From a virus, in IMG/VR virus record IMGVR_UViG_2718218502_000001, positions 2,841 through 66,840 of that record: a stretch of 64,000 bases of DNA; one strand, given 5' to 3'. This document shows, piece after piece, positions 572 through 55,114 of this stretch. Within the stretch, counting starts at the first letter, position 1. The number at the start of each line of letters is the position of its first letter. The notes beneath the pieces are model-generated. The model ran no database searches, was not told the origin of the DNA, and worked only from the letters and a program-made list of their open reading frames with translations. The translations under genes and the position numbers were made by a program.

Positions 572-1114
572 TTAGATTTTAAACCTAGTCATTGCTTTAT
601 CCATTGCATCTTGATTTACACCTATATAACGTAACGTGACCTTCTCTGACGAGTGATTAAATATCTCCATGAGTAATGCTATGTTTTTTGTTTGCATGTA
701 CATGTGATACCCGTATGTTTTTCTTAACGTATGTGTTCCTATTTCATCCAACCCGAACTCTGACGCTGCTCCGCTTAATATCTTATATGCCATGCTACGA
801 CCAATAGGACGATTCTTACCTTGTCTGCTTTGCAATAAATACTCATTGTCTTCCCTTTCTTCAATAAACCATTTCAGTTCTCTTTTCAGTGCTGCAGTAA
901 TTTGTATTCGTTTCTGTTTCCCTGTTTTCTTTTCTCTCATAGATATATGACTGCCCTTGACATCTCCTACCTTCAGTTTCAAAATATCCGAGATTCTAAG
1001 ACCTGTATTAATGCCCATAATGAAGAGAATGTAATTACGTAAGCTCTTTTCCTTAAAATACTCTTTAAGCTGCTGTATTTGCTCTGGATCACGTATTGGT
1101 TGAACGAAATTCAT
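572..1114 (-). CDS. Minimal tyrosine recombinase (180 aa, catalytic domain only)
   Basis: GLRISD (R), HTLRKT (HxxR), NHSS (H), LRYIG (Y) catalytic residues; no N-terminal arm-binding domain. Confidence 0.92.
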   Translation of the reverse strand: MNFVQPIRDPEQIQQLKEYFKEKSLRNYILFIMGINTGLRISDILKLKVGDVKGSHISMREKKTGKQKRIQITAALKRELKWFIEEREDNEYLLQSRQGKNRPIGRSMAYKILSGAASEFGLDEIGTHTLRKTYGYHMYMQTKNIALLMEIFNHSSEKVTLRYIGVNQDAMDKAMTRFKI

Positions 1115-1596
1115 TATTCATTACCTCCCGTTTCTTCTGTCTCGTAAACTTCTAATCCGAGCGCAAAAGCAAGTTTATAAAAAGCTTTAGATTTCCAACG
1201 TCGATAAGTACGCTCTGACATCCCTATTTCGTTATAAACCATATAATCACACACGTCCTCATCTTCTAAATAACGTTTATAAATAATATCTCTCTGAATA
1301 CTTCCTGCACGTTCGTTTCCTAATCGATTTAAAAACTGATCAATACGTACCGACATTATTTCAAGCCACTCTTCTCGTTTGCTTTGTTGAATATTTACTA
1401 TAGCAACATCTTCTAACGGTTTACCAACAGCATGTGTAGGACCGTGCTCACGTATTTCATAAGAAGGAGTGACTTTCATTTCTTTACGCATCATCCCAAA
1501 TTGTCTATGTATACGTACACTTTCCAAAACACCTTCTAATTCTTCGTGTGTCGCTATTCTGTCAATTTTTGGTAAAAAAGATAATTGTTTAGTCAT
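1114..1596 (-). CDS. ArpU-family phage transcriptional regulator
   Basis: C-terminal HTH IGMSERTYRRWKSKAFYKLAFAL typical of ArpU/RinA-like late activators; overlaps the recombinase start. Confidence 0.85.
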   Translation of the reverse strand: MTKQLSFLPKIDRIATHEELEGVLESVRIHRQFGMMRKEMKVTPSYEIREHGPTHAVGKPLEDVAIVNIQQSKREEWLEIMSVRIDQFLNRLGNERAGSIQRDIIYKRYLEDEDVCDYMVYNEIGMSERTYRRWKSKAFYKLAFALGLEVYETEETGGNE

Positions 1597-1793: not shown

Positions 1794-1909
1794 TTCCCCA
1801 TCTTCCTTTTCAAAATAAAAAGGACACCAATTCCTAAAACAGCTTTCATTGCTGCTTTAATGAATTGGCGTCCTCTAGTTTTCTAGCCGGACTATATTCG
1901 AATGTTATT

Positions 1910-2138
1910 TTATATATCCCAATAGTCATTATTAACATCATTAGTATATTTGCTGATTTCCTTCTCTTTCCCACACTTTTCACATTTATAATAACTAATA
2001 ACTAATAACTAATAACTAATAACTAATAACTATCCCCATCTTACCAGTTTTAAAATTTTCATTGTCATGACTTTTAATAAGTTTATATCTATGTATACAT
2101 TTAGGTTCTTTTAATTTATCAAACCAATTTCCTAACAT
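1910..2138 (-). pseudogene. Small Cys/His phage protein disrupted by heptamer-repeat expansion
   Basis: RBS GAGGAAAGGG; MLGNWFDKLKEPKCIHRY...GIVISY*; removing 4 of 6 AGTTATT units restores ...ISYYKCEKCGKEKEISKY...WDI. Confidence 0.7.
1990..2031 (+). repeat. Perfect (AATAACT)x6 tandem repeat
   Basis: Six exact 7-bp units read directly. Confidence 0.98.
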
Positions 2139-2262
2139 AAATTAATCCCTTTCCTCTCGAAGATATTCTTTTTATTCCCATCCTCTTAAGAATACCTTAG
2201 AAAAGATTCCCAATCAATGAAACGTGGTAGCTTGTTTTTCTATAAACAAAAGGATTATTTTG

Positions 2263-2523
2263 TTAAGAATTGATGATTTCTTTAATTCTATTAGGCTTGT
2301 CTAAGTTGTTATCGTTTGGTATATCCAATTTGACCACATTATCACTTAATGCATCAGCTAATTCATGAGCACTATTCATATCATGTGTATGAAATCTAAA
2401 TTCTTTACCATTAGAAAGTTACATAAACACTCCTTGCGATGAGTTAGTTCCAAATGTCCCAATCCGAACTCTGCACCAAAAGCATTTATCTTTATCTATA
2501 TGGCATGTACATGCATTACCCAT
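2263..2523 (-). pseudogene. Small phage/cassette gene with one internal TAA
   Basis: RBS GGGGATAGAG; MGNACTCHIDKDKCFWCRV...VFM*LSNGK...IINS; terminal stop abuts the 16-bp site at 2249-2264. Confidence 0.55.
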
Positions 2524-2538
2524 TTCGCTCTATCCCCT

Positions 2539-2640
2539 GAATAAAATTCAATATTCCGTCCATACTATAAATGCACTTGAGTTCTGAACTTCCTTCTTAA
2601 CGTTTTTCTGGAGAGCAGTTAGCTTTTGCTAGCTGCTCTT
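2539..2640 (+). ncRNA. Candidate sRNA cassette, SigG-type promoter
   Basis: GAATA(2539)-N17-CATACTA(2561); CTTCCTTC; terminator GAGCAGTTAGC/GCTAGCTGCTC; no ORF. Confidence 0.5.
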
Positions 2641-2788
2641 ATTTTCTGTAATTGGTTTCATTTACCTGATGTTTTCAACGTAATATTACGTTACGATATA
2701 AAAGGATAAAATATATTTGGCTGTTATATCATTACCCTAGGGAACTAGGTTTTTTTTACACAAAATGAAATTTTTATTTAACTTTCTT

Positions 2789-2910
2789 GCATAGCATTTT
2801 CGCTTCTGCGAATACTATGGTTGTAATTTGCAATTACACAATTAACATTTAATAAGCACCGTTTTCTTTTTTTACCAGAACAGCTAGCTAATCACGCTAG
2901 CTGTTTTATT
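2789..2910 (+). ncRNA. Candidate sRNA cassette, SigG-type; family with 5381 and 51458
   Basis: GCATA(2789)-N17-AATACTA(2811); TGTAAT/ATTACA hairpin; terminator AACAGCTAGC/GCTAGCTGTT. Confidence 0.5.
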
Positions 2911-2940
2911 GTATAAAATGAAGTTTTTATACGATTTTAA

Positions 2941-3035
2941 ACACATTTAAAAATAAATTCATATGATATTACGTATTCCTCTCTTTTACAAAATGGATTT
3001 GGGTCAGAAGAGCACTTTTACGAAGTGCTCTTTTC
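2941..3035 (+). ncRNA. Candidate sRNA cassette, SigK-type
   Basis: ACAC...CATATGATA(2960); ATTCCTCTC; terminator AGAGCACTT/AAGTGCTCT plus T run. Confidence 0.45.
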
Positions 3036-3406
3036 CCATGGAATTAAAGCTCTACTGAATAGCGTTTTTGTTTAGTTTCACTCTAAAAGTAAAATTTTCA
3101 TTTTTTCATTCAACCAAGTTCATAACATATTCTTTTCCCCCGATAAAATAATGATTAAGTGTCCCATGCGCATTTTATCCACTGGAAATAATACCTTTCA
3201 CGTACTTACGTATTAGAAACTTCATTTCTGCTTCTTCTGCAATAGCAATTTTGTTCACTTTTTTGATACATTTATGAAACATTCACATGTTATCTTCAAT
3301 ATGTTCTATTCTTTTTGAAAAACCATGTGAGAATACCAAAACAAGAAGCCCTAGAGCCCTAACTCTAGGGCTTCTTGTTTTCAAATAAGGATTTTGTTAA
3401 AAAACT

Positions 3407-3496
3407 GCACATTTATTAAGAACATGCATAAAATATAATGTGGTATTCTTTTTCAATATTATTGTTTATCCGAGAGCGCCTTGAATGGCGCTCTTT
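3407..3496 (+). ncRNA. Candidate sRNA cassette, SigK-type; family with 5517 and 52980
   Basis: AC(3409)-N16-CATAAAATA(3427); GTATTCTTTTTCA core; terminator AGAGCGCC/GGCGCTCT. Confidence 0.5.
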
Positions 3497-3603
3497 AATT
3501 TTCAAATAATTACGAGAGCGGATTTTATTATGTTGTACAAGCACTACTTCGCTTTATTAAATAGACTATATTGACATCTAAAAGAAGGGAGCTTTAAATT
3601 CAT

Positions 3604-4068
3604 ATGGCTGATTACTTTTATAAAGATGGTAAAAAGTATTATAAAAACCAAGCGCATTCGGACCCTCAAAAAAATAACTGTTTTGTTGAGACTCATACAA
3701 TTGGTGGTTCAGGAGTAAATTTAAATGGAAATATACCTATATCTATCGACCTCCTAGATACCACTCCACAAACAGTATTTGAAGATTTCACCAACAATCA
3801 CAATAAAACATTAATTCAGTTATTTGTTGTCGGCATGAGTGCCCCCGTTCAAGTAACTATTCTAACAAGAAGATCTAGCCTACCAATTACTACTACATTA
3901 CAACCCGTTCAAACAAAAATATTTCAAGTTGAAGATTTTCAAAGTCTTACTTTTACAAAGCAGGAAGGTCCTGCTAGTGTAGTTAGTTTATTTATTCAAA
4001 AAACATTTTGTATCTGCTGTAACGATAATAACGATTCATGTAATGAATATTACCACGAGTGCAATTAA
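3604..4068 (+). CDS. exsD: Exosporium protein D-like
   Basis: MADYFYKDGKKYYKNQ...KTFCICC matches my recollection of B. cereus ExsD; RBS AAGGGAG; terminator AGAACTCTTT/AAAGGGTTCT downstream. Confidence 0.75.
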   Translation: MADYFYKDGKKYYKNQAHSDPQKNNCFVETHTIGGSGVNLNGNIPISIDLLDTTPQTVFEDFTNNHNKTLIQLFVVGMSAPVQVTILTRRSSLPITTTLQPVQTKIFQVEDFQSLTFTKQEGPASVVSLFIQKTFCICCNDNNDSCNEYYHECN

Positions 4069-4171
4069 TAGATTAAATTGCCAGAAGAACTCTTTATATA
4101 AAGGGTTCTTTTCTTTTCACTCCCCTCATTTCCCCGTTTTTTATTAAAATAACTATTTTGTTATATTCCTT

Positions 4172-4270
4172 GCACTTTTAAATGAGACAAGCATATGTTG
4201 TAGTATAATGTTTCATCACTTATTTACACTTCCTTTTTTCAAGAGTACATATTCGATATGTACTCTTTTT
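4172..4270 (+). ncRNA. Candidate sRNA cassette, SigK-type; paralog of 5758-5860
   Basis: AC(4174)-N16-CATATGTT(4192); ACACTTCCTTTTT; terminator AGAGTACATAT/ATATGTACTCT; bounded by sites 4147 and 4282 (135-bp unit). Confidence 0.55.
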
Positions 4271-4496
4271 ATATCACTATAAAATAACGCTTTTATTTAT
4301 TTTTTAATACGCTTTTCCCAAAAAACATGCACTACCCCATCACCATCAAATTAAAATCTAATAGATTCCCAGAACGAAAATTTTAACTTTCTTGTAACAA
4401 CGAAGCTCTGTTATCGTTTTTGGAATACTTCATAACCTTAGCTTGATAGGCATAGGGCAAGACCCCTAATTTAGTAATTTACGTAGTACATGCCGT

Positions 4497-4525
4497 AACC
4501 AAATCTATTAATCTAACATATTGTA
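4497..4525 (+). promoter_or_regulatory. SigK-type promoter of the 128-aa gene
   Basis: AACC-N16-CATATTGTA matches the B. subtilis SigK consensus mACm-N16-CATAnnnTA. Confidence 0.6.
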
Positions 4526-4575
4526 TAAAAGTGACTTTAAACCTATAAAAAAGTTGCTAAGGAGGTTAATATAAA

Positions 4576-4962
4576 ATGGCATCATTTGAAATTGGAGCAA
4601 GATCTCTTTTCAATTTTCGAAACGAACGCTTTTTCTTATTAGTTGAAGATGAAATTACAATTCCAGATAAAGGTGTAGAAATTGATCCAGTTAATATCTA
4701 CGAAATTGATCAGCAAACTTTCAATTTTATCAGAGATGAAGGAGATACACCTGTAATTGAACCAGTTGATACACTTCCAACTGTACCACCTGGATTTAAA
4801 TTAGAACGAAAATGTATTTTCACAGTCGACAATTCATACTTTGTAATATACGATTTAGAAGATGGAACTGATAACAACGTCCTATTAAGAATCAGTGCAG
4901 CATTATTTAATTCATTAAGAAATTCTGGTGTTCGTGAATGTTTTCCTCAAAATTTCATTTAA
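4576..4962 (+). CDS. Hypothetical protein with two-fold internal repeat, probably mother-cell expressed
   Basis: RBS AAGGAGG; acidic 128-aa ORF; two similar halves; SigK-type promoter. Confidence 0.8.
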   Translation: MASFEIGARSLFNFRNERFFLLVEDEITIPDKGVEIDPVNIYEIDQQTFNFIRDEGDTPVIEPVDTLPTVPPGFKLERKCIFTVDNSYFVIYDLEDGTDNNVLLRISAALFNSLRNSGVRECFPQNFI

Positions 4963-5112
4963 GAACTTAAATTAATTAGACCTCAAATGGAATACTCTTT
5001 GAACAATTTAACCCCTCGTAGTTTTCTACAAAGGATTAAATTGTTATGTAAAAAGTTTTTTTAATTAAATGGAGCAGTTAATGCAAATGACTGCTCTATT
5101 TTAATTTTCATT

Positions 5113-5236
5113 ACATAAACTTGATATTTTTGTCCATACTATACAAAACTCACGAAATATTTATACTCCTTAAATTCGTGAATGTAATGTTCTTATAGCA
5201 GTTAGCCTATGCTAGCTATGCTAGCTGCTCTCTTTT
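5113..5236 (+). ncRNA. Candidate sRNA cassette, SigG-type
   Basis: ACATA(5113)-N17-CATACTA(5135); TCACGAA/TTCGTGA hairpin with ATACTCCTT in the loop; GCAGTTAGC-family terminator. Confidence 0.5.
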
Positions 5237-5261
5237 GCATTTAGTTAAAAATAAGTTTTAG

Positions 5262-5360
5262 GTCTTATTCCTTTTCTATAACATATACTTTTAACCTAAC
5301 CGTTCAGCTCAAAGTGTTACCTCCTATCTTAAAGAGCACTTATGCATGGTGCTCTTTTTT
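5262..5360 (+). ncRNA. Candidate sRNA cassette, near-identical to 51311-51409
   Basis: CATATACT -10-like element; TTACCTCCTATC anti-SD; terminator AGAGCAC/GTGCTCT plus T6; 95/99 identical to the prophage copy. Confidence 0.55.
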
Positions 5361-5380
5361 ATTTTATTTTTTTCATCTCT

Positions 5381-5497
5381 GTATAACATTTTCAACCCTG
5401 TTCATACTATTTTTGTAACTTAAAGTTACAAACTATTTCTGTAAGCGGAGCGTTTCTTTTGTACAACAAGCAGTTAGTTTTATTAACTAGCTGCTTT
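5381..5497 (+). ncRNA. Candidate sRNA cassette, SigG-type
   Basis: GTATA(5381)-N17-CATACTA(5403); TTGTAACT/AGTTACAA hairpin; AAGCAGTTAG/CTAGCTGCTT terminator. Confidence 0.55.
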
Positions 5498-5516
5498 GTT
5501 GTCCAAAAGAAAGATC

Positions 5517-5608
5517 TGCACATGTATTAAGAACATACATAAAATATCATGTGGTATTCTTTTTCAATTTTAGTTTTGGTCATGGAGCGCCTTAAAAAGC
5601 GCTCTTTA
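5517..5608 (+). ncRNA. Candidate sRNA cassette, SigK-type; paralog of 3407-3496
   Basis: CTGCACAT(G/T)TATTAAGAACAT(A/G)CATAAAATAT shared with the 3407 unit; GAGCGC/GCGCTC terminator. Confidence 0.5.
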
Positions 5609-5641
5609 TATTTGCAAATAACCATTTCGTTCAAACATACA

Positions 5642-5726
5642 CACGATTTATATAAACTAAGCATATATTTACATAGACAAGACATAGCTTTTACTATACA
5701 TGCACAATTTTTGTGCATGTTTTTTT
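5642..5726 (+). ncRNA. Candidate sRNA cassette, SigK-type; family with 53086
   Basis: AC(5643)-N17-CATATATT(5662); AGACAAGACATAG core; ACATGCACAA/TTGTGCATGT terminator; bounded by sites 5616 and 5735. Confidence 0.5.
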
Positions 5727-5757
5727 GTTCAACACAATAACTATTTTGTACATTCCT

Positions 5758-5860
5758 TGCACCTTTAAATGAGGCAATCATATGTTGTAGTATTATGTTT
5801 CATCGCTTATAGGAGCCTCCTTTTTTTCAAGAGTACATATTTGATATGTGCTCTTTTTTC
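5758..5860 (+). ncRNA. Candidate sRNA cassette, SigK-type; paralog of 4172-4270
   Basis: GCAC-CTTTAAATGAGGCAAT-CATATGTT; GCCTCCTTTT; AGAGTACATAT/ATATGTGCTCT terminator. Confidence 0.55.
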
Positions 5861-5872
5861 ATTCTCCTATAC

Positions 5873-6005
5873 GAATAATCTTTTTTACATTACACAAACT
5901 ATCCTCAAGTCAACTTCCCATGACTACACTCTTTAAAAATGGAGCTTTACCCCTCCGGACTTTTTAGGCACACGGCAGGTAACTTAGTCAATTACCTGCC
6001 ATTTT
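5873..6005 (+). ncRNA. Candidate sRNA cassette, SigG-like
   Basis: GAATA(5873)-N17-CAAACTA(5895); TTACCCCTCC; GGCAGGTAA/TTACCTGCC terminator. Confidence 0.45.
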
Positions 6006-6094
6006 CTATTCAAATAACGCATTTGTTTAATGAAAATCAATTAACTATAATTTGAAAAATCGGAAACATTTACTCAATGATTTTTCTGAATACT

Positions 6095-6190
6095 CATACT
6101 ATTATTTATGTGCTGATGTTCACCATCCCAAGAACTCAGTAATATCATCCACAGGCTCCACTCTCACCCTTTTGAGAGTGGAGCCTTTAT
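6095..6190 (+). ncRNA. Candidate sRNA cassette (only the -10 element recognised)
   Basis: CATACTA at 6095; 12-bp stem GGCTCCACTCTC/GAGAGTGGAGCC. Confidence 0.35.
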
Positions 6191-6239
6191 TTATAAGGAT
6201 TATCCTCAATATTTATTTTTATAAAATTCAAATTTGGTC

Positions 6240-6749
6240 TTAATATCCGTTATCTTGGCGCTGGTGGTTCACTTCATTCTTTTTGTAATAACCTTGCTCA
6301 ATCTCTTCAAATGTGATTCCTAATTTCTTACCTAAACCTAAGAACGAGTACAATAATTCCTCATAAAGCTCAATGTCTTGAGTTGCACGAAATTCCGATA
6401 CAGCTTCATATACATTGTTAAATTGATTTACTAGCTTACTTGCGGTATAGACGTTTGCATTATGTTCTAATAACTTCAGGCTATATTCATTAGGATTAAA
6501 TCCGATGCCATTCCCTAATGAAGATATAAAATGAAATCCATCTACATACTCCATTAAAATAACTTCTTTTTCACTAGGTCCTTTATTGCTCCAATGCTTA
6601 AAGCATCTTGTTTCATTTGCAAGTTCTCCAATTTCAACCTGTAATGCAAGAATCATATTGTAAAATAAATTTTGCCCTTCTAATCCATGCTCCTCAATGA
6701 TTCTTGTATCTAACACCTTTTGCATTCTGAATATTTTAGTTAAATTCAT
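6240..6749 (-). CDS. dut: Dimeric (all-alpha) dUTPase
   Basis: EIGELANETRCFKHWS, EYVDGFHF, KKNEVNHQRQDNGY motifs of the dUTPase_2 family. Confidence 0.88.
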   Translation of the reverse strand: MNLTKIFRMQKVLDTRIIEEHGLEGQNLFYNMILALQVEIGELANETRCFKHWSNKGPSEKEVILMEYVDGFHFISSLGNGIGFNPNEYSLKLLEHNANVYTASKLVNQFNNVYEAVSEFRATQDIELYEELLYSFLGLGKKLGITFEEIEQGYYKKNEVNHQRQDNGY

Positions 6750-6768: not shown

Positions 6769-7020
6769 TTAGCAAATCCCTAATCCTATCGGACGATTTT
6801 TAATTAAATACTTATCAGCCTGATCTATTACAAGGATAGCAACCTCAGCTTGATGTCTCCTTAACGCTTTTGCCATCTTTGGTAAACTCATGCCTTGACT
6901 CCACATTTCACGAAAACGAATTACATCTCTTTCATCCCAAATGAAGTTAGCTTCTTCTAAAGCGATGTATACCTTCAACCGTGATTCCTTCATCGCTTCA
7001 TGATTTCTCGCTACACTCAT
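6769..7020 (-). CDS. Conserved phage hypothetical protein (HTH-like)
   Basis: 83-aa ORF with RBS; REMWSQGMSLPKMAKALRR typical of B. cereus phage proteins. Confidence 0.75.
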   Translation of the reverse strand: MSVARNHEAMKESRLKVYIALEEANFIWDERDVIRFREMWSQGMSLPKMAKALRRHQAEVAILVIDQADKYLIKNRPIGLGIC

Positions 7021-7045
7021 AAGCGAACCTACTTTCTTAAAATGA

Positions 7046-7213
7046 TTATTTTATCTTTTCAGTAAACTTAGTATCTACACGATCAACTTTACCGTTTATC
7101 CAAACAGCAACTTGCTCACCAAAACCACTCTCCGGTGGATTGAATGCTGTAACATTTCCATCCTTTACTATTAAAAGCTTGTTATTACTAACATCAATTT
7201 CTACTTTTTTCAT
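7046..7213 (-). CDS. Small phage protein (DUF3954-like, 55 aa)
   Basis: Own translation MKKVEIDVSNNKLLIVKDGNVTAFNPPESGFGEQVAVWINGKVDRVDTKFTEKIK; stop lies inside a 16-bp site (7040-7055). Confidence 0.75.
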   Translation of the reverse strand: MKKVEIDVSNNKLLIVKDGNVTAFNPPESGFGEQVAVWINGKVDRVDTKFTEKIK

Positions 7214-9090: not shown

Positions 9091-9184
9091 ATTTTCCCTT
9101 TCTCCCAAATAACTATTTTGTTTTACTAATTAGCTGATTAATTTCACAAACACCTTTTAAACATTCCATGTTTCTTCACCTCTT

Positions 9185-9296
9185 GAATATTTTTCAAACA
9201 AAAATACATACTATTTTCAAGCCGCCGTTTCCACGGCTAATACCTCTTTCTTTTGTTACAGCAAAAGCAGGTAGGTTCTTCACTTATCTGCTTTCT
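9185..9296 (+). ncRNA. Candidate sRNA cassette, SigG-type
   Basis: GAATA(9185)-N17-CATACTA(9207); AGCCG/CGGCT hairpin; ATACCTCTTTC; AAAGCAGGTAG/TTATCTGCTTT terminator. Confidence 0.5.
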
Positions 9297-46895: not shown

Positions 46896-48101
46896 ATGGG
46901 TTTTACACAATATGCTCATACACTTGGCTACTTAAACGATAAACTAAAATCATTCGCGCACATTTATGGTCCTGTAGAGAATAATAGATTTCTATCACTC
47001 TACAGCAAGATTGCTTCTCCATTAGATGAAATTTTTGGGTTTTTACATTTCAATTTTAATAATTTACTACACCATATGAATAGTAGATTAAACACTAGGC
47101 ACTACACTGCAGATGAAAGCAGATCACTATTTCATTTAATTAATGAATTACGTAATATTCAAGGTACTTTAGCCGGCACTACATTTGATTTTAATGTAGA
47201 TACTTACTACGATGAAGTCCTTGAAAATTGCCTAGCATTTTTGCAAACTAGTGGAGGCAGCACCATCCCCCATGACTTCCAGCGTGTAAAAGTTATTGAG
47301 ATTTCACCTATTTTTACATTAAAAACAGGATTAACAGTCAAAAGATCTGACGGTATTTTAACATTTCCTACAGAGGAAATTGGTGCAGGATCTTACGCCA
47401 CTGTATATAAATTCACAGATCCACTATATAACAAAGAGTTTGCTTATAAGAAAGCACATACTAACTTAGAAGCAGACGAGAAAGAGCGCTTTTATACAGA
47501 ATTTGAGGTAATGAAAGGCTTAAAGTCACCTTTTATCCTGGAAGTTTACACTTTGAATAAAGAACAGAATTATTACGTAATGGAATACGCTGATGAAACC
47601 TTGGAAAATTATATCCAAAAAAACCCTGGCCTTGAGAATGAAAGAGAAAAAGTTTTATTTATTCGTCAAATTTGTTTAGCGTTTAAACGAATACATAGTG
47701 AAGGTGTCTATCATAGAGATATTTCACCAAAAAATATACTCATAAAGCATTTTGACGATACAAAAATGATTAAGATTGCTGACTTCGGTTTGGTGAAGGT
47801 TCCAGAAAGTAACCGTACGCGATTCGGTACAGAACTTAAAGGCTATCTCAATGATCCCCATCTAGGGCTCATAGGGTTTAATAACTATAAAGCGCATCAC
47901 GACATATATGCATTAACAAGGCTCATTTATTACATGTTCACTGGTAAAACAGCCGATGGTATATTTTCAAATCCGCATTTTGAAGGATTCTATAAAAAAG
48001 GGACGCATTTTGAAACCGAGCAAAGATACTCTAATATACAAGAATTAGAGAAAGCATTTTTTCAAAACGTTGCCCCCTCACTTAAGGAATTAGGTGTTTA
48101 G
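46896..48101 (+). CDS. Hanks-type Ser/Thr protein kinase with uncharacterised N-terminal domain
   Basis: GAGSYATV, AYKK, HRDISPKN, DFG; extended -10 TGATATAAT at 46853; opposite to phage genes. Confidence 0.92.
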   Translation: MGFTQYAHTLGYLNDKLKSFAHIYGPVENNRFLSLYSKIASPLDEIFGFLHFNFNNLLHHMNSRLNTRHYTADESRSLFHLINELRNIQGTLAGTTFDFNVDTYYDEVLENCLAFLQTSGGSTIPHDFQRVKVIEISPIFTLKTGLTVKRSDGILTFPTEEIGAGSYATVYKFTDPLYNKEFAYKKAHTNLEADEKERFYTEFEVMKGLKSPFILEVYTLNKEQNYYVMEYADETLENYIQKNPGLENEREKVLFIRQICLAFKRIHSEGVYHRDISPKNILIKHFDDTKMIKIADFGLVKVPESNRTRFGTELKGYLNDPHLGLIGFNNYKAHHDIYALTRLIYYMFTGKTADGIFSNPHFEGFYKKGTHFETEQRYSNIQELEKAFFQNVAPSLKELGV

Positions 48102-50537: not shown

Positions 50538-50681
50538 TGTTTTGGATGCTCCTTTCTTTCAAAGGATTTTTTTGTTTGGTTTCTAACAAACTTCATCTTT
50601 AATTTTTCTGGTTCTAATGAACCTCTAGACGAATACACCATATACTAATTTAAATACGTTCTAGGAAAGCAGGTGTGTACT

Positions 50682-50897
50682 ATGCCTTCTGTCGTTGGAA
50701 ATCTTGTCGTTCAAAACAGTAATGGTGCTTTCAATTTAGGGGATTTTTATAACGTATCTCCAAAAGAGAATACAAAATCTTATAATGGTTCAGGGGCATC
50801 AAATGTTTCTTTTGTTGTTAATACCTTTAACGGTGTTAGTGCAACGAATACATTTGATTCTGATGTTGCTGATCAAGACCAAGTTGTATCAAGTTAA
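50682..50897 (+). CDS. gerPF: Spore germination protein, GerPA/GerPF family
   Basis: MPSVVGNLVVQNSNGAFNLGDFYNVSPKENTK...SATNTFDSDVADQ; SigK-like CATATACTA at 50639. Confidence 0.88.
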   Translation: MPSVVGNLVVQNSNGAFNLGDFYNVSPKENTKSYNGSGASNVSFVVNTFNGVSATNTFDSDVADQDQVVSS

Positions 50898-50922
50898 AAT
50901 TATTTATTTCCCTCTCCCCCTT

Positions 50923-51043
50923 GAATAAAACTCGATATTCCGTCAATACTGTGCATAGGCGATAGCCAAAACTCATATTAATGAACCTCTATCAGCAGTA
51001 GTTCCCTGACCTGAGCCAGTTAGCTTTTGCTAGCTGCTCTTTT
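50923..51043 (+). ncRNA. Candidate sRNA cassette, SigG-like
   Basis: GAATA-N17-AATACTG; promoter region nearly matches the 2539 unit; CAGTTAGC/GCTAGCTG terminator. Confidence 0.45.
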
Positions 51044-51048
51044 AATTA

Positions 51049-51166
51049 CACATTTTTGTCTTAACACTCATATAATATTGTGAATTTAAAAATCATTTCA
51101 TGTTTAAAGGAAAAGTATTCTTTTTCATTACTCCACTCCCTCTTTAAATAAGGTTTTTAAAGAGGG
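51049..51166 (+). ncRNA. Candidate sRNA cassette, SigK-type
   Basis: CACA-N16-CATATAATA(51069); GTATTCTTTTTCATTACTCCACTCCCTC; CCCTCTTTAAA/TTTAAAGAGGG stem. Confidence 0.55.
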
Positions 51167-51287
51167 AATACATTAAAAAAATCTTGGTTACACTGTAAAC
51201 AGGCTCGTGAATAGCCAAATTTACTAATACCCACTCTATGTCTATTACCTTGGGCCGAGCAATTAGCAAAAGCTAATTGCTCTTTTA
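51166..51287 (+). ncRNA. Candidate sRNA cassette (promoter weak)
   Basis: GGCT/AGCC hairpin; GAGCAATTAGC/GCTAATTGCTC terminator; no ORF. Confidence 0.35.
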
Positions 51288-51310
51288 TATTGAGTTAATA
51301 ATAAAATTTA

Positions 51311-51409
51311 GTCTTATTCCTTTTCTACATCATATACTTTTAACCTAACCATCCAGCTCAAAGTGTTACCTCCTATCTTAAAGAGCACTTATGCATGGTG
51401 CTCTTTTTT
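51311..51409 (+). ncRNA. Candidate sRNA cassette, near-identical to 5262-5360
   Basis: 95/99 identity; TTACCTCCTATC anti-SD; AGAGCAC/GTGCTCT terminator. Confidence 0.55.
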
Positions 51410-51457
51410 AGTTTCCTTATTTCTACAAAATGAAATTTTTGTTTAGTTTTCTTACCT

Positions 51458-51580
51458 GCATAATATTTTGATATTTGTTTATACTATAGTTGTAACTTTT
51501 TGTTACAACATATATCCGTATCGATTGTAACTTCTAAAATTGTACAACGGAGCAGTTAGCTATTTCGGCTAGCTGCTTTG
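51458..51580 (+). ncRNA. Candidate sRNA cassette, SigG-type; family with 2789 and 5381
   Basis: GCATA-N17-TATACTA(51480); GTTGTAAC/GTTACAAC hairpin; GCAGTTAGC/GCTAGCTGC terminator; bounded by sites 51428 and 51588. Confidence 0.55.
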
Positions 51581-51814
51581 TTGTTTAAAATGAAGTTTTT
51601 ATTTAGTTTCACTGGTATTGTTCACACTAGGACTAGTACCGCCAAAACATTAGAACAACTGACATAAACGTCACATTTTTGCCAAATTTTATAATTTATT
51701 TTCAGAATCTACAAAATATTGCATTTTTCTCTTTTTTCTATTGGTATAATCGGGCTGTCTATCAAAGTTATAGAAAAATTGATAGAAAATTACTAATAGA
51801 ATGGAGATGTTTTT

Positions 51815-52066
51815 ATGTTTAAAAAATTAACTATTGGAACATTTGCAATTGGTATTATGTTCTCCGGTGTTACTGGTGTATCTGCGGCACAAATAAATGA
51901 TGCACCGCTCAAAGCTTCTGATAACAAATGTGCACAAAAAAAGCATAAATTTTCTCAGTTGTTTAATTCTCCAAAGGTCCCAGAAAATTATACAAAGAAT
52001 GGCGTTACAGGAAAGTTAGTTTGTACTTATGAGGGGCCAGTAGGTTGGATTGGTTACTATAATTAA
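51815..52066 (+). CDS. Secreted peptide, LCI-fold antimicrobial-like
   Basis: Sec signal peptide MFKKLTIG...VSA; C-terminal GWIGYY resembling LCI WVGIY; two Cys. Confidence 0.6.
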   Translation: MFKKLTIGTFAIGIMFSGVTGVSAAQINDAPLKASDNKCAQKKHKFSQLFNSPKVPENYTKNGVTGKLVCTYEGPVGWIGYYN

Positions 52067-52092
52067 TAAGTAACCTATCAATACAAGTTGGC

Positions 52093-52302
52093 TCACATCT
52101 CTCCCTCGCTTTTTTCATAATAGGCGAGGGATTTTATTTCAGATGTACTTATGCTTATAAAACCAACATCTTCACTTTCTACTAAAATAGCTTTTTTGTT
52201 TAAATCCACTTTTTTTAACTGTGGCTTTACTAATACTTTTGTGCTAAAATCCACTAGGATATTTATTTTAAAATTATTTTTGGAGGCTTTATGAATAATC
52301 AA
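52093..52302 (-). CDS. Hypothetical or 3' fragment of a phage gene
   Basis: No clear RBS; overlaps the start of the + strand ORF. Confidence 0.35.
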   Translation of the reverse strand: MIIHKASKNNFKINILVDFSTKVLVKPQLKKVDLNKKAILVESEDVGFISISTSEIKSLAYYEKSEGEM

Positions 52303-52755
52303 AACAACAATGAAACAAACAACAGCAATAGACTATTGGCAATTTTTCTAATAGTATCACCACTATTAATACCTATCGTGCTCCCTACAGCCATAATTGT
52401 AGGAATGAAACAATGGATGCCTGATGATGTTGAATACCCAAGTATAATGTCACTATTGACCTTATGTATTGGATTTTTCATAGTTGGGATCATTTTCTCT
52501 TTCGTATTACGGGTATTTAAATTATCTGAAGAAAAGCTAAAAGAATTAGGTTTCTTAGGATTTACAATTTCAATTGTTAGTACCTTTTTGACAATGTATG
52601 TCGGATATTTTGGGCTAGCAAAACTTAATTTCACAGCAGTGCAATTATCACCACATGCTGTATTAATCTTTGCGATTTTATCTACAATTCTTTTAGAAGC
52701 AATATTTAAGTTGATTGATAAATTTGATACACCTGATACAAAAGAAACACTTTAA
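52291..52755 (+). CDS. 4-TM membrane protein
   Basis: Four hydrophobic segments; RBS GGAGG; AGAGCACAT/ATGTGCTCT terminator. Confidence 0.8.
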   Translation: MNNQNNNETNNSNRLLAIFLIVSPLLIPIVLPTAIIVGMKQWMPDDVEYPSIMSLLTLCIGFFIVGIIFSFVLRVFKLSEEKLKELGFLGFTISIVSTFLTMYVGYFGLAKLNFTAVQLSPHAVLIFAILSTILLEAIFKLIDKFDTPDTKETL

Positions 52756-52841
52756 TAGATATTAAAATGATTATCTTAGAGCACATATCAACATGTGCTC
52801 TTTTTTCTTTTAACCAAATAACGATTTTATCTAAATCCATT

Positions 52842-52950
52842 CACTAATCTCAGACTTTGACATACAATAATAGTGCCTTTCTATATAATGTGAGTTCGTC
52901 ACTGTCGTTATAATGAGGTATAAGGAGCGCTCTCGATTAGCGCTCTTTTT
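52842..52950 (+). ncRNA. Candidate sRNA cassette, SigK/SigE-type
   Basis: CAC-N16-CATACAAT(52861); GAGCGC/GCGCTC terminator; bounded by sites 52816 and 52955 (139-bp unit). Confidence 0.55.
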
Positions 52951-52979
52951 ATTTAAATAAAGATTTCATTTTAAAATTA

Positions 52980-53068
52980 CACCTATCTAAAAAACATCCA
53001 TATAATATCTTGGGTGTTCTTTTTCAACCTTATTTTTAGTCAGAGAGCACTTTTAAAAGTGCTCTTTT
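52980..53068 (+). ncRNA. Candidate sRNA cassette, SigK-type; family with 3407 and 5517
   Basis: AC(52981)-N16-CATATAATA; GTGTTCTTTTTCA core; AGAGCACTTT/AAAGTGCTCT terminator. Confidence 0.5.
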
Positions 53069-53085
53069 AATTTATTTAGATGTAT

Positions 53086-53175
53086 CACGTTTTACATACA
53101 ATAAACATAAAATGCAAAGAGCAGACAAGACATAGTTTTTATATAATCGTGTACATTTTTTGTACGCGATTTTTT
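53086..53175 (+). ncRNA. Candidate sRNA cassette, SigK-type; family with 5642
   Basis: AC(53087)-N17-CATAAAAT; AGACAAGACATAG core; ATCGTGTACA/TGTACGCGAT terminator. Confidence 0.5.
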
Positions 53176-53194
53176 AATTAAATAAGAATTTTGT

Positions 53195-54175
53195 TTAAAA
53201 ATGATTTATTAATTCCAACTGAACATTATTTAGTAATCTATCAGATATCTCTATATAACCAGGATTTAATTCAATACCAATAAAATTCCTATTATGCTTT
53301 GCAGCGACACGACCAACTGTACCTGAACCGAAGAATGGATCCATAACAATTCCTTCAGCTGGCGCCCCAGCTAATATGCAAGGTTCAATTAATGCTTCCG
53401 GAAATGTAGCAAAATGTGCTTCCTTCAATGGTTTTGTTGATACTGTCCAAACCGACCTTTTATTTCTTTTATCCCGAATCGCTCTAAATGCTTCATGGCC
53501 ATATTTACCGTTAAAGGAGCCTTTCTCTTTGCTTGTTCTTTTTGCTCTTTGTGGCGGACCAAATGCACCTTCCGAACCTCGAACATCTTGTTGGCCATAA
53601 ACTGCTGGCTCTTTAATACTTTCGTGATCGTAATAGTATTTAGGTGACTTACTTAATAAGAAAATATATTCATGTGACTTAGTAGGTCTATCCCTTACAC
53701 TCTCTGGCATTGCATTTGGCTTGTTCCAAATGATATCTTGTCTTAAATACCAACCATCTTGCTGTAAAGCGAAAGCTACTCGCCAAGGTAAACCGATTAG
53801 ATCCTTTGGTTTTAATCCATCTACTGATTTTGTGATTGAAACAATTCCGGTAACTTGGCCAACACTTTGAAAATGATTGTTACCTGGATTCCCTTTTCCA
53901 TCTGCATTTCTTCCACGTCCACTTCCAGCATATGCATCACCTAGATTTAGCCAAAGTGTTCCGTCATCCCTTAGTACACGCTTTACTTCCCGAAAAACTG
54001 ATACAAGGTTGTCCACATATTCATCAACTGTATTTTCTAATCCAATCTGTCCATCTACCCCGTAATCACGTAATCCCCAATATGGAGGACTCGTGACCAC
54101 AGTACTCACAAAATTATCCGGAAAAGCTTTTAGTACGTCTAAACAATGTCCTGGGTAAACTTTATTTAGTTCCAT
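53195..54175 (-). CDS. Orphan DNA methyltransferase, beta class (N4-C or N6-A)
   Basis: VTSPPY (motif IV) near N-terminus, DPFFGSGT (motif I) near C-terminus; bounded by sites 53180 and 54199. Confidence 0.93.
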   Translation of the reverse strand: MELNKVYPGHCLDVLKAFPDNFVSTVVTSPPYWGLRDYGVDGQIGLENTVDEYVDNLVSVFREVKRVLRDDGTLWLNLGDAYAGSGRGRNADGKGNPGNNHFQSVGQVTGIVSITKSVDGLKPKDLIGLPWRVAFALQQDGWYLRQDIIWNKPNAMPESVRDRPTKSHEYIFLLSKSPKYYYDHESIKEPAVYGQQDVRGSEGAFGPPQRAKRTSKEKGSFNGKYGHEAFRAIRDKRNKRSVWTVSTKPLKEAHFATFPEALIEPCILAGAPAEGIVMDPFFGSGTVGRVAAKHNRNFIGIELNPGYIEISDRLLNNVQLELINHF

Positions 54176-54345
54176 TCCTATCCTCCCCTTTTCGATTAAA
54201 ATAACTATTTTATTAAAAATCTTTAATGAGCTAATCCTTACAATTTTGTAATACTAATGTCACTGAAATCAATTTTTTCACTATAAACTCTTTACTATAA
54301 TTTTCCTTATAAAGTTATAAACACACAGTAAGGAGCGGCTTAAAA

Positions 54346-54945
54346 ATGTCTTTTTCTCAATTAAATATTGATGCTTTTCGAGCAATCAATGATTTAGGGA
54401 AGTCATATTCATCCCTAAACTCAACTATGGTATTTGTGGCGGAATATATGGTGTATTTTTTAGGTTTAATTATTATGGCTTATTGGTTTACTCAATCTAG
54501 AAAAAACAAAATGATGATTATTCAAGCGATGGTCGCTTTCGTAACTGCTGAAATAATCGGAAAATTAGCAGGGAATTTGCATTTGAATTATCAACCATTT
54601 GCAGTATTACCTAATGTTAATAAACTTGTCGATCATGCAGTAGATAATTCATTTCCTAGCGACCATACGATTCTATTTTTTTCAATTTGTTTTTCATTCT
54701 GGCTTATTCGTAAAAAGGCTAGATGGTTATGGCTTGTACTTGCATTCTGCGTAGCTATTTCTCGTATTTGGGTAGGAGTTCATTATCCTTTCGATGTAAT
54801 AACAGGAGCTTTAATAGGAATTATTTCAGCGCTATTTTCATATTGGTTAACACCGAAAATTACATTCATCAAACAATTGCTTAATCTTTACGAAAAAATA
54901 GAACAAAATGTAATACCATCCAAAAACAAGTCAAAAAACTTTTGA
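54346..54945 (+). CDS. bcrC: Undecaprenyl-pyrophosphate phosphatase, PAP2/BcrC-like
   Basis: SFPSDH, SRIWVGVHYPFD PAP2 motifs; several TMs; bounded by sites 54199 and 55042. Confidence 0.9.
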   Translation: MSFSQLNIDAFRAINDLGKSYSSLNSTMVFVAEYMVYFLGLIIMAYWFTQSRKNKMMIIQAMVAFVTAEIIGKLAGNLHLNYQPFAVLPNVNKLVDHAVDNSFPSDHTILFFSICFSFWLIRKKARWLWLVLAFCVAISRIWVGVHYPFDVITGALIGIISALFSYWLTPKITFIKQLLNLYEKIEQNVIPSKNKSKNF

Positions 54946-55114
54946 TTAATCTCACAAAGCTAAAAAGATTACATATATTACCGAGTATTTTTCAATATTG
55001 TCTTGATCAAAGAGCGCTCCCCTGGGTGCTCTTTAATTTTAAAATAACGCTTTTATTAAAAAACGAACATTCAACTTAAATCGCAGCTGACAATCCAATC
55101 CAAATTCCGAACAT

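Follow-up and report, generated by a model that had tools for sequence, protein, structure and literature searches.

What delimits the short accessory units of temperate phage genomes, and by what route do such units pass from one phage to another? We address this question in a 64,000-nucleotide stretch of DNA, hereafter the window, which corresponds to positions 2,841 to 66,840 of the 74.7-kb provirus record IMGVR_UViG_2718218502_000001 of IMG/VR, and in which two accessory regions carry, at the joints of their units, copies of the oriented motif AAATRANNNTTTYRTY (AAATRA-N3-TTTYRTY). A first-pass annotation had read the first of these regions as an integron-like array whose cassettes are captured, at a quasi-palindromic site, by a tyrosine recombinase encoded nearby. 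Its description of the region as a chain of short units stands; the integron interpretation is not supported. On balance, we consider it likely that the motif is a conserved oriented boundary (linker) sequence at which temperate phages of the Bacillus cereus group exchange units, most probably in a homology-dependent manner. The main phage genes of the window lie on the minus strand, with a structural module at 23-43 kb that is flanked on both sides by replication and lysogeny genes, and the features on which the argument turns are the following:

1900-6240, plus strand: accessory array 1, a chain of short units mostly antisense to the flanking phage genes, between the dimeric dUTPase and ArpU genes
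6240-6749, minus strand: dimeric dUTPase (dUTPase_2), the conserved border gene of array 1
1114-1596, minus strand: ArpU-family late transcriptional activator (TIGR01637, 75.5 bits against a cut-off of 43.1)
572-1114, minus strand: tyrosine recombinase of 180 amino acids, catalytic domain only, downstream of arpU and sharing one base with it
50560-55100, plus strand: accessory array 2, of the same kind as array 1, downstream of a second dUTPase gene

The strict motif matches the window 18 times, against 0.44 ± 0.57 in dinucleotide shuffles, which confirms the enrichment noticed at first pass, where 14 copies had been counted. A relaxed form, AAYRA-N5-TYRTT, gives 21 matches against 4.9 expected. 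Fifteen of the strict matches lie on the plus strand and three on the minus strand, and each of these three overlaps or adjoins a plus-strand reading (2764 with 2763, 8936 with 8935 and 2245 with 2249). No strict copy occurs between 9122 and 51428, an interval that covers the structural module, as had been suspected, and every copy named at first pass was found again, the strict ones at 2763, 3383, 4147, 4282 and 5616 and the near copies at 2249, 2916, 5735 and 6012, the latter with position weight matrix (PWM) scores of 10-20. No earlier description of the motif was found in the literature that we searched, and we know of no convincing match to it among the CodY box, the Fur, PerR and Zur boxes, the ComK AT-box, dif, IHF or AbrB sites. 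The individual copies are:

2249-2264, plus strand: near copy, PWM 15.2 on this strand; the better reading is 2245-2260 on the minus strand, PWM 18.5
2763-2778, plus strand: junction motif AAATGAAATTTTTATT, after a terminator and before a plus-strand unit, PWM 21.5
2916-2931, plus strand: near copy after a terminator, PWM 13.2
3383-3398, plus strand: junction motif after the terminator at 3354-3373 and before the promoter-like site of the unit at 3399-3502, PWM 25.1
3672-3687, plus strand: motif copy off any joint, inside the open reading frame (ORF) at 3604-4068 and conserved with it in phage PHBA67-J
4147-4162, plus strand: junction motif between the unit of the 154-amino-acid ORF and an ORF-less unit, PWM 23.4
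4282-4297, plus strand: junction motif after the terminator at 4241-4267, PWM 23.0
5616-5631, plus strand: junction motif after the terminator at 5584-5605
5735-5750, plus strand: degenerate junction motif before the second 4157-type unit, PWM 10.2
6012-6027, plus strand: near copy whose flanks recur separately in three related loci (L003, L011 and L013), PWM 19.8
7040-7055, plus strand: motif between two minus-strand genes, shortly before the ribosome-binding site of 6769-7020 and over the stop codon of 7046-7213
9107-9122, plus strand: motif beside the ribosome-binding site of a minus-strand gene, PWM 23.9
51428, 51588, 52816, 52955, 53180, 54199 and 55042, all plus strand: strict copies of array 2, with a near copy at 52185

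In addition, the two halves of the motif (AAATAA and ATTTTATT) stand about 12 bases apart at 3503-3528, after the terminator at 3472-3495, and have the look of a copy split as by a small insertion.

The enrichment and the strand bias extend to related phages. Across 56 IMG/VR loci anchored on the dUTPase gene, 201 copies lie opposite to the dUTPase strand and 11 on the same strand, with 7 for the reversed control, and 16 genomic loci anchored on ArpU show the same pattern. With a PWM threshold of 12, the count rises to 503 sites, compared with 41 for the opposite strand and 8 for shuffled sequence, and the mean spacing of motifs within an array is about 520 bp. The frequency of the motif exceeds background in the arrays and stays at background level in chromosomes outside prophages: two whole Bacillus chromosomes of about 5.4 Mb each hold 64 and 62 copies, with 51 and 42 for the reversed control, and the excess sits in clusters, one of them inside a prophage locus. 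A host regulon was ruled out on these grounds, chromosomal and reversed-control frequencies being equal. A search for an exact 19-mer in one genome per prokaryotic species gave 25 loci, 11 of them in records with B. cereus-group names. In the nine of these that were scored as Bacillus, including B. cytotoxicus and B. pseudomycoides, one to six more copies on the same strand lie with the 19-mer seed, and in 14 other loci it stands alone, a split in which two Bacillus-titled loci (L084 and L106) were labelled by hand.

The motif sits at joints of several kinds. Among 270 strict copies, its orientation is constant at every joint type: 135 copies directly follow the T-tract of a plus-strand terminator, 69 lie between two ORFs of the opposite strand, which is the main strand of the phage, and the remainder includes convergent and divergent joints. 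Some copies directly precede plus-strand promoters. At main-strand joints, where most of the copies of phages J5a and phi4B1 are found, the motif often runs over the stop codon of the upstream gene, and 3-6 nt separate its end from the ribosome-binding site. Its neighbours are diverse: distinct flanks number about 160 on the upstream side and 158 on the downstream side, and the motif is therefore not part of one repeated unit. As expected of a linker, one short sequence joins many unrelated left and right neighbours, and the flanks are recombined combinatorially. Eight variants of the spacer account for 84% of the copies, and this pattern of a few discrete variants fits copying by descent.

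Homology between related phages breaks off at the motif more often than elsewhere. In anchored pairs of motif copies that share the downstream flank only (181-190), homology stops at motif positions -4 to 0, and in those that share the upstream flank only (116-122) it stops at positions 12-19. An unanchored all-against-all BLAST comparison agrees, with 14-21% of alignment starts at the left edge of the motif, against 1.4-2.9% at random positions, and 21-32% of alignment ends at its right edge, against 1.6-3.2%; the enrichment of breakpoints at the motif is 7-13-fold over random positions. At the copy at 4147, for example, phage PHBA67-J has the same upstream flank and a different downstream flank. 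A clean 287-nt indel provides another example, in which locus L030 carries a unit between two motif copies and array 2, at the corresponding empty site, has one copy only. Among both types of recombinant pairs, identity reaches 0.84-1.00 at motif positions 4, 6 and 8 and 0.59-0.76 at position 7, over a background of 0.29-0.59, position -1 tracks the upstream flank only, and positions 13 onward track the downstream flank only. This linkage profile of positions -1, 4-8 and 13 onward places the exchange inside identical copies, within positions 0-12. The enrichment of the motif, its orientation, its position at joints, its coincidence with breakpoints and the identity of motif variants in recombinant pairs are all direct results.

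How might such exchange proceed? The region from the dUTPase to the late-activator gene would be a hyperplastic array of short self-contained units, most of them on the plus strand and consisting of a promoter, a small ORF or an ORF-less transcript, and a terminator, with small main-strand genes interspersed. Arrays would meet in co-infection, or when an infecting phage encounters a resident prophage, and the identical joint copies of about 20 bp would supply short homology. A crossover at a joint would spare promoter, terminator and ORF; two such crossovers could swap, insert or delete a unit, and recombination between direct copies within one genome would remove whatever units they enclose. 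Descent by in-register exchange, among arrays whose position relative to essential neighbouring genes is fixed, would account for the single orientation, and the motif may double as an UP-like promoter element in plus-strand units, which would help its conservation. Homology dependence, the enzymes of exchange and any promoter role are here what we infer, and there are precedents in the PeSL cassettes (PMC2839356, PMC4122927), in short conserved boundary sequences (PMC3029335) and in the relaxed recombination carried out by phage recombinases (PMC3945230).

Several observations weigh against this reading. A length of 16-20 bp is short for RecA-type recombination, and no Erf or RecT gene was found in the phages WBeta, J5a and McSteamy or in this record; among the array-bearing phages Erf occurs in phi4B1 only and RecT in none. 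Identical spacers are needed by a tyrosine recombinase with an overlap region as well, so spacer identity does not separate the mechanisms, and a linker model alone does not explain why the motif is so strongly conserved at the joints of main-strand genes. The breakpoint figures count pairs and alignment segments, which are not independent events, and only about a fifth to a third of alignment boundaries coincide with motif edges. The motif is at neither end in many replacements and, by crude chaining, in 12 of 29 within-array indels; a 7-nt direct repeat bounds one 99-nt indel, and unrelated microhomology lies at the ends of some array indels. Since false 'indels' arise from repeated units, this chaining is noisy, and we used it solely for the one clean example above and for the existence of breakpoints away from the motif. 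The motif is thus a hot spot for breakpoints, and other breakpoints exist too.

Does a dedicated recombinase act at the motif? The motif could be a true site-specific recombination site, served in cis or in trans by the 180-amino-acid recombinase or by an unrecognised host or phage recombinase, and several properties are what such a site would show. Oriented direct copies mark the unit joints exactly, exchange is limited to positions 0-12, the spacer falls into discrete classes, and it is identical in recombinants, as an overlap region needs. The 180-amino-acid protein has candidate active-site residues, identified by eye, including HxxR and a C-terminal tyrosine, and aligns with the catalytic domain of XerC and XerA structures; its gene accompanies the array in most dUTPase- or ArpU-anchored loci, although this co-occurrence is biased by the way in which the loci were selected. 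WBeta-like phages, moreover, offer no Erf or RecT as an alternative enzyme.

The distribution of the enzyme nevertheless argues otherwise. The complete genomes of WBeta, J5a and McSteamy carry 4, 6 and 4 oriented copies in the expected place and contain no Phage_integrase-family (PF00589) gene, and phi4B1 has 5 copies and lacks the small recombinase. Conversely, the family of the 180-amino-acid protein is encoded in 211 Firmicutes phage records, from Streptococcus, Clostridium, Listeria, Staphylococcus, Bacillus and others, and its gene adjoins the late-activator gene in those phage genomes among them whose annotation was seen; phi105 and phi3626 possess the gene without an array, and BtCS33 combines it with a single strict copy of the motif. 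Tail proteins are the only protein families common to all five array-bearing phage types, among which we found no common phage-encoded binder or recombinase. The recombinase beside the late-activator gene appears to be unrelated to the arrays, and the arrays are independent of a tyrosine recombinase encoded in cis; the proposed integron-like capture by the product of 572-1114 is not supported.

The anatomy of the site points in the same direction. Beyond the 16 bases, the consensus reads Y-A, AAATRA, three bases that are mostly C-G-A, TTTYRTT and W-A-R-W-T-T-T, in which the 'inverted arms' described at first pass amount to a 5-bp run of A opposite a run of T. No covariation is seen between the variable positions of these arms (of 53 cases with G at position 4, 2 have G-C; Fisher p = 0.37), and T-G is the pair met most often at positions 3 and 13. 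A palindrome or hairpin reading of the motif was ruled out by this absence of covariation. Tyrosine-recombinase core sites have arms of about 9-13 bp around an overlap of 6-8 bp, unlike these 5-bp A/T runs without symmetry or covariation, and exchange within positions 0-12 with identical spacers is compatible with such a core site without being specific to it. There is also no attI-like copy beside the recombinase gene, the nearest reading being about 1.1 kb away (2245-2264) and the nearest strict plus-strand copy about 1.65 kb, and many breakpoints lie elsewhere. A site-specific recombination site is, in our estimation, improbable. We are equally doubtful of a dedicated cassette-exchange system of the B. 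cereus group that relies on the 180-amino-acid recombinase supplied in trans by co-resident prophages, or on an enzyme that sequence does not reveal; if such a system were real, the spacer variants would be compatibility classes, like the spacer variants of lox.

Integron attC and attI sites with IntI share with the arrays small units, a single orientation and a recurring delimiting site. They differ in that attC sites are inverted repeats of 57-141 bp and the site here is 16-21 bp long without dyad covariation, resembling neither attC nor a core site with arms of 9-13 bp. No integrase of the IntI type is involved, the 180-amino-acid protein scoring 30.7 bits against the integron-integrase model TIGR02249, for which the cut-off is 265; arrays exist without a tyrosine recombinase, and many boundaries lie off the site. 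Integron cassettes are promoterless and stand under a common promoter, whereas the units here own their promoters and terminators. Over array 1, an 8-kb scan detected 20 sites resembling intrinsic terminators (3.3 expected from shuffles), with 18 of the 20 on the plus strand. Only two sizeable ORFs lie in 1900-6240, both on the plus strand, and some of the units that recur are ORF-less:

3604-4068, plus strand: cargo ORF of 154 amino acids, function not assigned (phrog_26176)
4576-4962, plus strand: cargo ORF of 128 amino acids, without a family match
3399-3502, plus strand: ORF-less unit with a promoter-like site, a short transcript and a terminator; second copy at 5510-5613 (83%)
4157-4270, plus strand: ORF-less unit; second copy at 5744-5858 (83-90%), with the -35, the -10 and the terminator kept in 13 distinct homologues

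These two pairs are among the recurring units recorded at first pass; a third pair proposed there, 2789 and 5381, was not recovered, and a sigG/F-type promoter is present at 5381 and absent from the 2789 unit. The ORF-less units of about 100 nt (3399-3502, 5510-5613 and about 52990-53070, and 4157-4270 and 5744-5858) have conserved -35, -10 and terminator elements, and a C/U-rich stretch in their predicted transcripts, about 60-75 nt long, could pair with ribosome-binding sites. The units look like phage-borne small RNA genes; at gathering thresholds, Rfam assigns no family anywhere in the window, and within the array it gives merely two chance-level miRNA matches.

Could the units themselves be mobile? 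Under such a reading, they would be miniature transposable elements, with the motif as their end or target site, and it is true that related units recur in different neighbourhoods and that terminator-like hairpins stand beside the motif. Yet a unit occurs 0-4 times per 5.5-Mb genome, and the matches that were checked against known coordinates fall inside motif clusters. There are no terminal inverted repeats, no target duplications and no array-associated transposase, and the hairpins are very diverse. We regard this explanation as very improbable, the miniature inverted-repeat element having been ruled out largely by copy number.

A more serious alternative, although still an unlikely one, is that the motif is primarily a regulatory or processing element, such as an UP-like element, an insulator, a site for a DNA- or RNA-binding protein or an mRNA processing site. 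Breakpoints would then fall at the motif merely because it is the sole conserved island, a supposition to which we give the same limited credence. In plus-strand units the motif occupies -60 to -42, upstream of the -35 element (about -60 to -44 in the 4157-type family), which is the position of an UP element ahead of sigA-like and sigG/F-like -35 elements. Its A-run and T-run recall the composition of UP elements (Estrem consensus), and in PeSLs, too, an AT-rich part precedes the -35. Half of the copies stand immediately behind a terminator, and at main-strand joints the motif precedes the ribosome-binding site by 3-6 nt, often over the preceding stop codon. A sigA-like -35 starts 5-9 nt past the motif in 16 of 265 distinct contexts, forming a clear positional peak, and a sigG/F-like -35 starts 4-23 nt past it in 25 cases. 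Forespore-type promoters (GHATR, 17-18 nt, YATNHTA) number 77 on the plus strand of the arrays and 17 on the minus strand, against about 16 per shuffle, and often lie just past a motif. Matches in the window include:

2539-2567, 5381-5409, 9185-9213 and 51458-51486: forespore-type (sigG/sigF-like) promoter matches, found also in the arrays of related loci

A sigF-like factor is reported to be encoded by phages of the B. cereus group (PMC4113786, with reference to the Fah study). Since the phages of the group encode such a sigma factor, part of the array cargo may be expressed during sporulation.

These positions do not, however, make the motif a promoter part in general. Across 158 distinct downstream contexts there is no conserved fixed-distance signal beyond +23, and for this reason we do not regard the motif as a general part of promoters; a strong in-register sigA-type promoter is present in only about 6% of contexts. 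An UP-like role cannot account for the main-strand joints, at which the unchanged orientation of the motif does not suit a plus-strand promoter function. The array-bearing phages are heteroimmune and have no regulator in common, and the host chromosome does not use the motif. We also considered the motif as a -10 or -35 element on either strand and rejected this by eye, the spacing to the ribosome-binding site being too short and a conserved partner element lacking. A regulatory function is compatible with exchange at a linker and does not exclude it.

Similar one-orientation sites are known in other phages. The stoperators of cluster A mycobacteriophages, reportedly described by Brown et al. 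in 1997, and the start-associated sequences of cluster K, attributed to Pope et al. in 2011, are short asymmetric sites that lie in small intergenic gaps near stop and start codons. Both are tied to the repressor or the translation starts of one phage and are spread genome-wide. Unlike these, the site described here is confined to the accessory array and occurs in heteroimmune phages without a common regulator: a cognate regulator should be present in every carrier phage, and the five types have only tail proteins in common.

Among known systems, the PeSL (promoter-early stem-loop) cassettes in the hyperplastic regions of T4-type phages come closest (Arbiol et al. 2010, PMC2839356; Comeau et al. 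2014, PMC4122927). In both cases a short intergenic sequence is repeated in a variable, ORFan-rich region, has a terminator hairpin on one side and a promoter on the other, includes an AT-rich stretch that often reaches over the upstream stop codon, and serves as the exchange point between otherwise unrelated sequences of related phages. The differences are that the present phages are temperate and have Gram-positive hosts, and that only an AT-rich part of 16-21 bp is conserved here, the promoter and the stem-loop varying widely. By its sequence, the conserved core itself looks like neither a promoter nor a stem-loop, a terminator lying directly upstream in 135 of the 270 copies and an in-register promoter following in a minority. 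Furthermore, most units here are antisense to the main transcription, and the motif is also found at promoterless main-strand joints. Mini-circles arising by recombination between adjacent copies are a further mark of the PeSL type.

The likeness extends to the boundary (linker) sequences of modular theory, which are short conserved junction sequences at which recombination joins unrelated neighbours, and which are described as undetectable at most mosaic boundaries (PMC3029335). By contrast, one oriented consensus is reused here hundreds of times, in 62 loci and several phage lineages of one host group.

The provirus record has further features of its own. At 1985-2034, between the ArpU side and the first copy of the motif, a TAACTAA-like unit of 7 nt stands in about six tandem copies. 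Parts of the window also turn up in small-RNA and RNA-seq runs. In the record, dUTPase genes, late-regulator regions and arrays each occur twice; one of its regions is WBeta-like, with serine integrase, FtsK-like and replication-initiator genes, and the other has its own DNA polymerase and primase-helicase. The record may represent two adjacent or fused phage genomes. In array 2 the cargo comprises a GerPA/GerPF spore-germination protein, a Yip1-like membrane protein, a PAP2 phosphatase and an opposite-strand DNA methylase. In and around this array, at 50673-50897, 52291-52755, 54346-54945 and 46896-48101, lie genes for GerPA/GerPF, Yip1-like, PAP2 (undecaprenyl-diphosphatase-like) and Ser/Thr protein kinase proteins.

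It has long been asked whether phage mosaicism arises at conserved linkers or through illegitimate recombination. In the present arrays a single oriented consensus marks about 500 joints in 62 loci and measurably concentrates the breakpoints of homology, which makes the arrays a tractable Gram-positive counterpart of the PeSL system of T4-type phages. The motif also provides a practical marker for delimiting accessory cassettes in phage annotation. The cargo of the arrays is of the lysogenic-conversion type, with GerPA/GerPF, PAP2 phosphatase, membrane proteins, ORF-less transcription units and sporulation-type promoters, and the motif may thus be a route by which spore- and envelope-related accessory genes circulate among the phages of B. 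anthracis, B. cereus and B. thuringiensis.

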